DNA of 64,000 nucleotides from Escherichia coli (GTDB lineage: Bacteria > Pseudomonadota > Gammaproteobacteria > Enterobacterales > Enterobacteriaceae), in NCBI RefSeq assembly GCF_013315695.1, contig NZ_CP054353.1. One strand, written 5' to 3'. Every line of letters starts with the position of its first letter. Positions within the stretch are counted from its first letter, which is position 1. A program made the position numbers and the translations under genes. Below are positions 55,590-62,965 of the stretch, piece by piece. The notes below the pieces were generated by a model, which was not told the origin of the DNA, did not search any database, and was given only the letters and a program-made list of their open reading frames with translations.

Positions 55590-57035
55590 TCAAATATTTT
55601 CGCCATTGTTGGCGATGAGATCCCGATACCAGTAAAACGACGCTTTACGTATCCTTTCCAGCGTTCCCTTCCCTTCGTTGTCTTTATCGACATAAATCAT
55701 TCCGTAGCGTTTTTTCATTTCCCCTGTTCCGGCAGAAACCAGGTCAATGCAGCCCCACGGTGTGTAGCCAATTAAGTCAACACCATCTTCAACAACGGCT
55801 TTTTTCATTTCCCGAATATGGGAAGCAAAGTACTCAATGCGATAGTGATCGTTCACCGTGCCGTCAGCTTGTCTCTGGTCAACCGCACCCAATCCATTTT
55901 CGACAATAAACAGCGGCAACTGGAAATGATCCCAGAACCAGTTGAGTGAATAACGTAGCCCTGCCGGATCAATTTGCCATCCCCATTCGGATGTATCGAT
56001 ATAAGGGTTGCTGACCAAATCTCGTGGTTCAACATAATTCAGTTGCGGGTTATCTGGCGAAAATTGCGTAGTAAAAGACATGTAGTAGCTAAAACCGATA
56101 AAGTCGACACATCCTCTGGCAAGAATCGTGTTATCTTCTGGTGTGATATCGAGGTTGAATCCTTTCCTGGCAAAGTAATTCAGCATATGTTGCGGATAAT
56201 ATCCACGCGCATGAACATCAGTAAACCAGTAACGACGATGCATCGCTTTCGTGGCCATCATCATATCGTTGGGTGCACACGTCAGAGGATAGATGGGGCA
56301 CATGGCGATCATACAGCCGATATTAAATTCAGGATTGATCGATTTTCCAGTCTGTACCGCCAGGGCACTGGCAACTAACTCGTAATGTACCGCCTGGTAC
56401 ATTATTTGTTCGCGCTCATTGATATCTTCCTCTGGCGAATACAAGATACCGGAATTAGTAAATGGACACAGGCTTTCGCTGAAATTCACCTGATTATTGA
56501 TTTCGTTAAACGTCATCCAGTACTTTACTTTTTCTTTATAGCGCGTGAAGACCGTTGATGCGAAGCGGATGAAAAAGTCGATCAGTTTACGGTGTCGCCA
56601 GCCACCATATTTTGTCACCAGATGATAAGGCATCTCAAAATGCGAAAGCGTCACCACAGGCTCCATTCCCTGCTTCAGGCATTCATCGAACAGATCATCA
56701 TAAAATTGTAAACCCTCTTCATTCGGCTCCTGTTCGTCACCTTGCGGAAAGATTCGTGTCCAGGCAATGGAAGTTCGAAAGCATTTGAATCCCATCTCGG
56801 CAAATAACTGAATATCTGTTTTATAGCGATGATAAAAATCAATTGCTTCATGATTGGGATAATTAAGCCCGTCGATAATGCCTTCTGTCACTTCACGCGG
56901 CACCCCGTGAGCGCCAGCAGTCATCACATCAGCGATACTGATGCCTTTTCCTCCTTCATTCCAGCCACCTTCCAACTGATGCGCGGCTACCGCGCCACCC
57001 CATAAAAAACCTTTTTTAAATCCTGACATACACAA
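55590..57035 (-). CDS. 6-phospho-beta-glucosidase (glycoside hydrolase family 1), bgcA-like
   Basis: 481 aa; GH1 motifs ([24 protein letters not shown] acid/base and nucleophile regions); last gene of the PTS island. Confidence 0.85.
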
Positions 57036-57053
57036 CTCCTTAACTAAAATAGA

Positions 57054-58727
57054 TTACCACCAGACTTCCGCCTGGATGCCGGCCATAAATTCGTCTTTGC
57101 TGTTCTCATTAAACTTAAAATTAGATAATTCGTTATCCAGAATATTGATATACGTGCCATAGAAGCGAATTTCTGGTCGTGAACCTAAAATGCTTTCACC
57201 CACTTTCAATGCATGCCAGAGTGTCGTTTTATAAGCCGATTCATTTAGTGTTACACCCTGCTGTGCTTTGTTCTGTTGCTTAAACCAGCCTAATTCAAGC
57301 CCCGTCTGATTCCATGTATTCCAGATCCAGGCCGGTCTTATTACGGTGCGAATACTGTCAAAATCACTATGAGCGCCACTTTCATAACTATAAACATCTT
57401 CGCCATGAGAATAGACAAGCGCGTTAGCCATAATAATATTGTCAGTAAGATACATCTCGCCCTGAGAGATTAAACGCCAGGCGATCCCATTGGTATGGTC
57501 ACCATAGTAATAGCGACCATGCGCCATCGTGTTACTGGCATCTGAGAAACTGGCAAAACTGCTGGCATAGGAATTATTGGCAACCTGTAACGTAAATTCA
57601 TTAAACGTATCGCGTTGCAGTTTTTGCCGTAAAACAGAAGTCAGCATCCAGCTATCTTTCATTTCAAAATAACTGTCGTCATTTTCATTATCTTGTTGTT
57701 GATCCGTTTTATTAGGTGCGGAATATTTAGCCATTAATGATAATGTTGCATCATCCCATAACGGGATATTGCGATAACGAACATCCACAGAATTAGTATT
57801 CATCTGACTGGTACGCGTAAAATCACGGGAGTAAACATCGACATCATCTCGGCTTAAGGACATATCAAACAGCCCTACACCAAGTGCCCAGTTTTCAATC
57901 CCCACACCCGCAGCGACATCCGTGGTTAAGGTTTTCCAGTCCAGCATTTGGATCTCATATTGCGGGAGTTTATGTTTGCCTACCCAGAAGTCTGCCTCTG
58001 GCGCGAAGGGTAAAAAACCTCGCGTTGTCAGATAAATATCACTGAACTGCATGATATTTTCATTGGCACTGTCACCAAACCAGGCATCGTTATACTGCTC
58101 ACCTACGTTGCCATCATAGGTAACGACCGCATTTGCCGTTTTACCGTCCTGATTATAAACACGCTGATTTAAGGTTAAGTCAAACCAACCGCTCATCTCG
58201 TTACCAAAACGTCCCAGAGAACCCGCTGCATAAGTTTGTGGTGAGCCATGATTTCCGGTACCCCAACCTGAGCGAAAGTACCCCTGATAGCTGAACCCAA
58301 TATCATCTTTTATATATTTACTGATATCTTTCAGGGTCACGCTTTCGATAGTGGTTTTATCGCCTTTACTTTCAATAACGGCAATTTGCTGCGATCCATT
58401 TATAGTATGTGCTGCGGCAGACGAGTTCTGTTCACCGTTTTCATTTTTGATGTTATCAGCAACGGGAGATGGAGCTGATATTTCGGCAAGCGAGGCCGAT
58501 TGATATTTATTTTCTGTGATGCTTTTTTGTAATGTCGAAAGTCGGAATTTATATACTCCCAGTTCATTCTGTGTTGCTCTCAGCTCTTGTTTATTTTGCG
58601 ACAATTCATTTTCAAGCAGTTCAAGGCGCTGCTCTATGGTTAATTTTGTTGCCATCGCGTTCAATGGAAACAATGCTGTAATAATAGAAAAAGACAAAAG
58701 GCTGACGTTAAGCGTCTTTATATTCAT
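57054..58727 (-). CDS. Carbohydrate-specific outer-membrane porin (LamB/ScrY/BglH-like), bgcH-like
   Basis: 557 aa; signal peptide, coiled-coil N-terminal extension ([30 protein letters not shown]), beta-barrel ending in W. Confidence 0.75.
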
Positions 58728-58782
58728 GACTTATCCTTAAGAGTGTAATAATTTCCTCCAGCTATCGCACTGGAGGAAAAAA

Positions 58783-59100
58783 TCAGGCATGGAGCTCTTT
58801 TCTTAATGAAATGATTTCCCTGGCTAAATCCTGGCATAATATTGCATTCATCAAATGATCCTGTGCATGTACCAGAATGAGATTAACTTTTATTTTGCCA
58901 CAGCCTTCATCCTGACTAATTAACGCGGTCTGAATCTTATGCGCCTGAAGACAGGCGGATTCAGAACTGGCCATTAGCTGAGTTGCGCCCTGCCAGTCTT
59001 TTTGCCCGGCACAACGTATGGCTTCCATCGCATCAGAACGGGCCTGTCCTGCGTTGACCAGTAACTCCATAACAAGTTCTTCATCTGCAAACATCAACAT
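58783..59100 (-). CDS. PTS lactose/cellobiose-family EIIA component
   Basis: 105 aa helical ORF typical of ChbA/LacF-type EIIA. Confidence 0.8.
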   Translation of the reverse strand: MLMFADEELVMELLVNAGQARSDAMEAIRCAGQKDWQGATQLMASSESACLQAHKIQTALISQDEGCGKIKVNLILVHAQDHLMNAILCQDLAREIISLRKELHA

Positions 59101-61722: not shown

Positions 61723-61756
61723 TTAGTTCAGGTAATAGTTTAATAAAATTAGATTC

Positions 61757-62068
61757 TTACTCTTGCAGTAGTTTCATCGCAAATTCAAGAACTGCCTGTC
61801 CGTTCATGCTGCCATAGTCTTTCATCTCGATAACAGCTACAGGCATTTTCCCCTGTGCAACAGCTTCAATCTCTGGTTTCTGAAAGCGAACTTGCGGGCC
61901 AAGTAAAACAACGTCAACTTCGTTATTTTTAATTTTCCCTTTAGCCTCTGCAATCGCCAATGCGGAAATATTAACTTCAAGTGAAATAGCGTTAGCATGA
62001 TCAATCATACGTTTAACCAGCATACTGGTTGACATGCCCGCAGCGCAAACTAACAATATCTTTTTCAT
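61757..62068 (-). CDS. PTS lactose/cellobiose-family EIIB component
   Basis: 103 aa ORF MKKILLVCAAGMSTSMLV with the phosphorylatable Cys of ChbB-type EIIB. Confidence 0.85.
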   Translation of the reverse strand: MKKILLVCAAGMSTSMLVKRMIDHANAISLEVNISALAIAEAKGKIKNNEVDVVLLGPQVRFQKPEIEAVAQGKMPVAVIEMKDYGSMNGQAVLEFAMKLLQE

Positions 62069-62266
62069 ATTTTCCCTTACTGGTATATAACAGATTACAT
62101 TGTGTAAATATCATATCCCGCAGTAGCTATACGTCCTGGTACATTGATCACAGTAATACAGCACTAAAGTTGTTCAACATCAGGGTGATAATTAAACGAC
62201 TCGGCCATAGGATAAACCAATCAGGACTCAACTCCTTGTTTTCAATGGCTCTTAAAAGGTGCAAAA

Positions 62267-62965
62267 GTGATTTTTCAAAAGATTGCCCGCTTACTTAAAT
62301 CCGAGATCAATGGCTATTCATGGCATGTTGGTGATTTGTTGCCGTCAGAAGCTGAACTCGCTGTTCGTTATAATGTTTCGCGTAATACCCTGCGTAAGGC
62401 ATTATCCTTGCTGGAAGGCGAAGGAATTATTCATAGAAAGCATGGTTCAGGAACATACATTCAAAAAAAGAATTTTGTTGCACACATTGATCACATGAAC
62501 AGCTTCAGTGAAATTGCGCATAAAAGCGGCAAGGAGGCAGGAAGTCAGATTATGAAATTTGAAGTGCAGGATGCTTCTCCCCCTATTGCGACTGAGCTGA
62601 ATTTAGTGACTGGTGAGCAGGTTTATTACATAAAGAGACTGCGATTCATTGAGGATAATGCAGCACAATTAGAAGAAACGTGGATGTCAGTGGCACGTTT
62701 TCCTGATTTAACCGTAGCACATATGCAAAAATCCAAATTTTCGTATATTGAGAACGAATGCGGGATCAAAATCATTGGCACCTTTGAAACTTTCTCCCCT
62801 ACTTTTCCTACCCCAGAAATCGCCAGTATTTTACGGATCAGCCCACGGGATCCCATACTTAAAATTCAGACCCAGGCTGTGGACAGTAACTCTATTCCGC
62901 TGGATTATTCGTTACTTTACAGCAATATTTTCGAGTTCCAGGTAAAGTACTTTTTCCCGCGATAA
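62267..62965 (+). CDS. GntR-family (HutC/UTRA-type) regulator, divergent from the PTS operon; bgcR-like
   Basis: GTG start; GntR winged HTH (LPSEAELAVRYNVSRNTLRKALSLLEGEGII) plus C-terminal UTRA-like domain. Confidence 0.8.
   Translation: MIFQKIARLLKSEINGYSWHVGDLLPSEAELAVRYNVSRNTLRKALSLLEGEGIIHRKHGSGTYIQKKNFVAHIDHMNSFSEIAHKSGKEAGSQIMKFEVQDASPPIATELNLVTGEQVYYIKRLRFIEDNAAQLEETWMSVARFPDLTVAHMQKSKFSYIENECGIKIIGTFETFSPTFPTPEIASILRISPRDPILKIQTQAVDSNSIPLDYSLLYSNIFEFQVKYFFPR

Follow-up and report, generated by a model that had tools for sequence, protein, structure and literature searches.

The insert between marB and eamA in an Escherichia coli strain is very probably the known bgc beta-glucoside locus, most likely split by a private copy of ISKpn26

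Which carbohydrate system occupies the space between marB and eamA in the Escherichia coli strain represented by contig NZ_CP054353.1 (assembly GCF_013315695.1), and is that system still whole? The stretch of this contig that we analyzed, hereafter the window, is 64,000 nucleotides long, and an original prediction, made from the letters alone, had located in it a divergent GntR-family regulator, the IIB, IIC and IIA components (EIIB, EIIC and EIIA) of a phosphotransferase system (PTS), a LamB-like porin and a glycoside hydrolase family 1 (GH1) phospho-beta-glucosidase, with an IS5 insertion sequence (IS) among them, and had read the whole as a bgc-type operon (bgcR / bgcEFIHA), accessory but not novel. 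Our analysis indicates that the region is very probably the known bgc locus of E. coli, in which bgcR is divergent from bgcE-bgcF-bgcI-bgcH-bgcA, forming a chromosomally fixed accessory locus at the marB-eamA site, and that in the window a copy of ISKpn26 most likely splits it. The locus itself has already been described, and its only unusual feature here is this private IS copy between bgcE and bgcF.

The comparison with the uropathogenic strain CFT073 carries the identification. Taken without the IS and one copy of its target-site duplication, window positions 55201-63200 align end to end with CFT073 (NC_004431.1, 1,795,780-1,802,580) at 97.27% identity over 6,801 bp, and in CFT073, too, these six genes stand between marB and eamA in an unchanged order, in agreement with the operon content and order that had been proposed. 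The six proteins have equal lengths in the two strains, contain no internal stops, and are 97.3% (GH1 enzyme), 98.2% (porin), 96.1% (EIIA), 99.1% (EIIC), 98.1% (EIIB) and 98.7% (GntR regulator) identical; the neighboring EamA protein is 100% identical to that of CFT073. Against E. coli MSB1_4I, the same IS-free locus differs by a single, synonymous base in 6,801.

Every gene that the original prediction had listed was found in its place, the interval 55590-62965 running exactly from the stop of the GH1 gene to the stop of the GntR gene. The further claim that marB is directly followed by eamA in K-12 also holds, as the gap between the two genes in MG1655 is only 30 bp and the insert is missing there. 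The window is homologous to K-12 up to about 55535 and again from about 63020, and, set against this marB-eamA junction, the boundaries of the insert can be refined to 55534-63009, which amounts to 7,476 bp, or 6,277 bp once the IS and one copy of its target duplication are subtracted. Neither of the two observations that had been named as contrary to the prediction, low identity to the bgc proteins and presence of the island at this site in K-12-like genomes, was encountered, the proteins being 96-99% identical to those of CFT073 and K-12 being without the island.

The bgc operon (bgcR / bgcEFIHA) was reportedly described by Neelakanta, Sankar and Schnetz in 2009 (Appl Environ Microbiol 75:2284) in strains i484 and CFT073. 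Its published gene order is presumably as given here, and bgc reportedly corresponds to CFT073 c1955-c1960. Relative to the bgc of i484 and CFT073, the window has in common a five-gene operon and, divergent from it, a regulator of the GntR type, an arrangement that in CFT073 lies at the same site, and differs by the ISKpn26 copy between bgcE and bgcF. A comparative study groups the six genes c1955-c1960 under “PTS system, cellobiose specific” and lists them as present in SMS-3-5 but not in K-12 (PMC2831201), which agrees with the distribution seen here, SMS-3-5 carrying the locus at 99.8% identity. According to PMC3585215, which interchanges the designations IIA and IIC for BgcF and BgcI, the five genes of the bgc operon encode EIIB, EIIC, EIIA, a porin and a phospho-beta-glucosidase and are positively regulated by the GntR-type BgcR; in PMC4488073, bgc is counted as a cryptic beta-glucoside operon of E. 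coli.

As an accessory locus, the region is missing from K-12 and found in many natural isolates. It does not form a contiguous operon read from one promoter upstream of bgcE, since ISKpn26 separates bgcE from bgcFIHA. This break arose secondarily in a locus that belongs to bgc and is not evidence against its membership.

At the protein level, none of the six bgc reading frames is broken, and the proteins keep their catalytic residues. BgcA matches NCBIfam NF007154 over its full length with 1030.6 bits (cut-off 624) and aligns end to end with its nearest solved relatives, the phospho-beta-glucosidases 3pn8, 4f66 and 4f79 (E of about 1e-238; 6e-239 for 3pn8 and 4f66), as well as aligning with E. 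coli BglA (2xhy). Its NEI motif (Glu176), its ENG motif (Glu377) and its phosphate-binding S...K.Y motif are all identical in the alignment with 3pn8 and 4f66, and by these features BgcA is predicted to be a GH1 6-phospho-beta-glucosidase. BgcH contains the Pfam domains LamB (PF02264, residues 147-557, E 2.4e-81) and Sugarporin_N (PF11471, residues 30-56, E 2e-6), and its match to the NCBIfam maltoporin model (E 3.9e-60) falls under the cut-off, which indicates that it is not LamB itself. A phmmer search of the PDB sequences returned no match for BgcH, and its placement needed the Pfam and NCBIfam profiles, which place it in the LamB/sugar porin family with an N-terminal periplasmic coiled-coil extension as in the ScrY/BglH-like subgroup.

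Among the PTS components, BgcI is matched by the NCBIfam ChbA, EIIA-LAC and EIIA-Cel models and aligns with the ChbA structure 1wcr (E 8e-22), its His76, within VHAQDH, taking the position of the phosphorylated histidine that is a glutamate in the phosphomimetic ChbA structures 2lrk/2wwv. BgcF matches TIGR00410, the lactose/cellobiose IIC subfamily, with 335.6 bits (cut-off 236), and BgcE, with matches to TIGR00853 and to ChbB-type models, aligns with the cellobiose/chitobiose EIIB structures 2l2q, 4mge, 1h9c and 1e2b and keeps Cys8 in the LLVCaaGMSTS motif. Together, BgcI, BgcE and BgcF are predicted to be the separate EIIA, EIIB and EIIC of a PTS of the lactose/cellobiose family (TC 4.A.3). 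The best NCBIfam matches of BgcR all belong to the HutC subfamily (PRK09764, PhnF, TreR and HutC), each below its equivalog cut-off, and the members of its cluster are named “UTRA domain-containing protein”. Looking up the locus proteins in exact-sequence clusters yielded generic names only and no “Bgc” names.

These family assignments suggest how the intact system would work. The BgcH porin would pass beta-glucosides through the outer membrane, while a phosphoryl group would be relayed from phosphoenolpyruvate via enzyme I and HPr to His76 of BgcI and then to Cys8 of BgcE, enabling BgcF, the EIIC, to translocate and phosphorylate the incoming sugar. BgcA, with Glu176 as the acid/base and Glu377 as the nucleophile, would then convert the 6-phospho-beta-glucoside into glucose-6-phosphate and an aglycone or glucose.

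Control of the operon would be exerted from the divergent bgcR-bgcE region, in which a CRP-like site is found at 62137-62152 (TGGTACATTGATCACA, 2 mismatches), such sites occurring across the window at the level of chance (26 observed, 28.7 expected). On the minus strand, neither the bgcR-bgcE region nor the 83 bp ahead of bgcF gave a sigma-70-like site in a promoter scan; together with the weak CRP-like site, this null result fits an activator-dependent bgc promoter and proves nothing. Rfam models at their gathering thresholds gave no match over the whole window, and hence no riboswitch or RAT-type antiterminator. Directly upstream of the bgcE ribosome-binding site lies a near-palindrome, CTGGTATATAACAG (62080-62093), which resembles operators of the HutC/DasR/GmuR type with their GT-N-TA-N-AC core, the GmuR site sequence being quoted in PMC3585215. 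By this analogy, CTGGTATATAACAG is a candidate BgcR site.

The terminal inverted repeats of the element that interrupts the locus are 16 bp long with one mismatch, and the element is bordered by TTAG duplications at 60524-60527 and 61723-61726, a 4-bp target of the YTAR type. It encodes a 326-aa DDE transposase that matches NF033581, the IS5 family, with 366.8 bits, so that its size, inverted repeats, 4-bp duplication and transposase all agree with those of the IS5 family and ISKpn26. The label “IS5” of the original prediction is only approximate and did not stand, the element being 100% identical to copies labelled in RefSeq as “IS5-like element ISKpn26 family transposase”, which occur on numerous chromosomes and plasmids of E. 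coli, and only 94.6% identical to the copy in strain 20220828076 that RefSeq labels IS5. It lies in the 113-bp bgcE-bgcF spacer (73% AT, intact in MSB1_4I), 34 bp past the bgcE stop and 83 bp ahead of the bgcF start, with its transposase gene co-oriented with the bgc operon. Both IS junctions are missing from all 5,426 complete E. coli genomes searched, and, as the window is otherwise near-identical to MSB1_4I, the insertion is, judging from these comparisons, a very recent, strain-private transposition in an IS-rich lineage. This copy is a recent strain marker that separates the window from the near-identical MSB1_4I.

By its position, ISKpn26 places 1.2 kb of foreign DNA between the bgc promoter and bgcE on one side and bgcFIHA on the other, and the stretch of about 230 nt that follows the transposase stop is untranslated. 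Promoter-driven expression of bgcFIHA would most likely be reduced or abolished, and an already cryptic locus would be functionally split. Given the identity of the locus, we hold with moderate confidence that such a polar effect on bgcFIHA would be the more likely outcome of the insertion.

Several points weigh against this reading of a bgc locus split by ISKpn26. The link between the name bgc and the locus is indirect, running through a secondary description and not through the deposited i484 sequence. The transposase is co-oriented with the operon, so that read-through from the IS could still transcribe bgcFIHA, and a terminator scan of the minus strand inside the IS gave one weak terminator-like site only (61029-61011), so that polarity need not be strong. 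Besides, PMC11043490 and PMC8836124 describe IS5-type elements that activate silent E. coli operons when located upstream of them, as in the case of bgl.

The strongest alternative holds that ISKpn26 permits or activates expression of bgcFIHA, by transcription from the IS or by relief of AT-rich DNA silencing, independently of BgcR and CRP. The transposase gene does point at bgcF, and all downstream open reading frames are intact, but bgcE, being upstream of the IS, would be left out of the activation, and without its EIIB the phosphorelay to EIIC would be broken unless another EIIB substitutes. The locus is indeed AT-rich, with 42.7% GC outside the IS against 49.7% in the rest of the window, and is counted as cryptic (PMC4488073), yet no promoter-like minus-strand site lies between the end of the IS and bgcF. 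Insertions of IS1 and IS5 are known to activate bgl (PMC11043490 and PMC8836124); there, however, the activating IS is upstream of the bgl promoter, whereas here it is inside the operon, downstream of the first gene. In addition, the insertion is private to one strain against the 5,426 genomes, it occurred in a lineage with many IS-split genes, and the IS copies found elsewhere inside bgc coding sequences look like decay and not like selection. We therefore consider activation unlikely. Less likely still is that the insertion is an adaptive rewiring, in which bgcFIHA would be expressed constitutively from the IS and EIIB would come from the native promoter or from another cellobiose-family EIIB; if true, this would represent a new route to wake a cryptic beta-glucoside operon from inside the operon.

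Independent IS copies are also found in the bgc loci of other strains, including an IS5 inside the EIIC gene (NZ_CP151161.1, 4323-6844), an IS903B, an IS1 adjoining a partial EIIC gene, and an IS1A between two EIIA annotations. Such repeated insertions across strains suggest a recurrent decay of the cryptic operon, and recurrent hits are to be expected for an operon that is cryptic and rarely selected.

How old and how widespread is the split bgc locus apart from its IS? Scored as present at 95-100% identity with at least 80% coverage, bgcFIHA occurs in 2,493 of the 5,426 complete genomes (46%), nearly always as a single chromosomal copy, which bears out the description of the locus as accessory but not novel. 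This prevalence, in strains of many sources, is far broader than the “septicemic and uropathogenic” label of the original title, and the importance of the finding is slight beyond correct annotation: it concerns an accessory carbohydrate system that has been described before and occurs widely in E. coli. The allele in the window is of a minority type, with 32 of 2,563 matching records at least 99% identical to it, among them MSB1_4I and SMS-3-5. The flanking core genes are 96.8% (marB) and 97.4% (eamA) identical to those of CFT073 at the nucleotide level, similar to the divergence of the locus (about 97%), and from these values the locus looks like an old one that is vertically inherited or lost in lineages, not an active island.

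A recently acquired mobile island, still able to excise or transfer, would account for the lower GC content of the 7.4-kb insert relative to its flanks, for the imperfect direct repeat at its two ends, and for the 5 of 2,569 bgcFIHA-matching places that are on records classed as plasmid, one of them the 42-kb NZ_CP141086.1. However, neither an integrase or recombinase gene nor a tRNA gene is found in or adjoining the insert, whose sole mobility gene is that of the secondary IS, and the same site is occupied in 2,493 genomes at 95-100% identity, with about 97% identity between lineages, as for marB and eamA. On this lack of mobility genes beyond the IS, the constant site and the core-like divergence, we reject such a mobile island as very unlikely.

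E. coli has further beta-glucoside and cellobiose systems with which the locus could be confused. The chb operon has an AraC-type regulator, a GH4 phospho-glucosidase and a deacetylase, without a porin, while bgl has a fused glucose-family EIIBCA (BglF) together with the antiterminator BglG, and asc has a LacI/GalR-type repressor. The chbBCARFG operon of K-12 resembles bgc in that its EIIB, EIIC and EIIA are separate proteins of the lactose/cellobiose family and share the phosphorylation-site cysteine and histidine, whereas bglGFBH resembles it in being cryptic, in its beta-glucoside substrates, in its LamB-type porin (BglH) and GH1 phospho-beta-glucosidase, and in being a known target of IS1 and IS5 insertion. 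That the locus is a paralog of chbBCARFG, bglGFBH or ascFB-ascG and not bgc is nonetheless the least credible of the alternatives and is effectively refuted by the family scores and by its absence from K-12: although its EIIA, EIIB and EIIC match Chb models among others and its GH1 enzyme is related to BglA (2xhy), the Chb equivalog scores lie far under their cut-offs (278.6 vs 760 for EIIC, 106.6 vs 148 for EIIA and 66.3 vs 157 for EIIB), which indicates a distinct cellobiose-family PTS, the locus combines a GntR/HutC regulator with split Lac-family EII components, a porin and a GH1 enzyme, and K-12 carries chb, bgl and asc but not bgc.

Outside E. coli, cellobiose/beta-glucoside PTS operons with GntR regulators are found in the Gram-positive S. 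pneumoniae (bgu) and B. subtilis (gmu). The regulators of bgu and gmu are repressors, whereas BgcR is reported to be an activator (PMC3585215), and these Gram-positive operons are without an outer-membrane porin, unlike bgc. The features of the locus, its flanks and the other IS copies of the window are collected in Table 1.

Table 1. Positions of the bgc locus, its flanking genes and the insertion sequences in the window
Feature	Product or character	Position	Strand	Remark
marC, marR, marA, marB		left of insert; marB stop at 55533		from the open reading frame listing
marB		55315-55533	+	left flank common to K-12; marB annotated at the same place in MSB1_4I, CFT073 and K-12
Left boundary hairpin		55538-55565		between convergent marB and bgcA
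bgcA	GH1 6-phospho-beta-glucosidase, 479 aa	55590-57029	-	
bgcH	LamB-family carbohydrate porin with N-terminal coiled-coil extension, 557 aa	57054-58727	-	
bgcI	PTS EIIA, lactose/cellobiose family, 103 aa	58783-59094	-	
bgcF	PTS EIIC, lactose/cellobiose family, 440 aa	59122-60444	-	intact
Remainder of bgcE-bgcF spacer, bgcF side	83 bp	60445-60527	-	
ISKpn26	IS5-like, 1,195 bp	60528-61722	-	transposase 60674-61654 (-)
bgcE	PTS EIIB, lactose/cellobiose family, 103 aa	61757-62068	-	
bgcR-bgcE control region	divergent	62069-62266		
bgcR	GntR-family HutC-type regulator with UTRA effector domain, 232 aa	62267-62965	+	
Right boundary hairpin		62965-63011		between convergent bgcR and eamA
eamA		63010-63909	-	right flank common to K-12; stop at 63010
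IS1 (two copies)	768 bp	13839-14606, 32459-33226		99.9% identical
IS4 (two copies)	1,438 bp	19995-21430, 29108-30545		99.8% identical
IS2 (one copy)		about 24150-25466		

The hairpins that had been claimed to bound the insert on both sides proved to be real. The left one has perfect 12-bp arms (55538-55549 and 55554-55565) around a 4-nt loop, with a folding free energy of -22.1 kcal/mol on the plus strand and -23.3 kcal/mol on the minus strand and a z-score of about -5.7, none of 200 shuffled sequences folding as well, and it is likely a bidirectional terminator. The right one has 19-nt arms (62965-62983 and 62993-63011) that are 84% complementary, with a folding free energy of -21.0 kcal/mol and a z-score of -4.9, again with none of 200 shuffles folding as well.

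The repeat at the two insert ends lies within these hairpins, as the imperfect direct repeat CACAGAG(C/TG)CTGACATC at 55552-55567 and 62975-62991, and the empty site of K-12 has a related CCCGACATCTCGG in its own terminator hairpin. This end repeat may have been left behind by the original integration or by a duplication of the terminator. The last two codons of eamA (63010-63018), as read from the sequence, give ...KVRG* in the window and in CFT073 and ...KVGS* in K-12; since the end of eamA thus differs between the island-bearing strains and K-12, the boundary of divergence extends a few bases into eamA.

Over its whole 64 kb, the window is 99.98-100% identical to MSB1_4I (NZ_LR898874.1), with 10 single-nucleotide polymorphisms, apart from the ISKpn26 insertion and an IS2-bounded inversion. 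Window positions 1-25466 map to 2,695,600-2,670,135 of MSB1_4I in reversed orientation and positions 24150-60527 to 2,581,150-2,617,527 in forward orientation, and by this mapping the two differ by an inversion of about 88 kb that is bounded by IS2 copies. The window has the arrangement without the inversion, and in it one IS2 lies within a fimbrial usher gene.

Besides ISKpn26, five further IS copies lie in the window, several of them splitting genes. One IS1 separates the remnants of uidB and uidC, and one IS4 splits an autotransporter gene of the ECSE_1600 family (27151-29046 and 30543-32195). At 18339-22230, only an IS4 lies between fumB and a truncated fimbrial gene of the ydeQRST cluster, two loci that are about 100 kb apart in K-12, and this fumB-IS4-ydeQRST junction is present in 1 of the 5,426 complete genomes, that of MSB1_4I, which marks it as a lineage-specific, IS4-mediated rearrangement.

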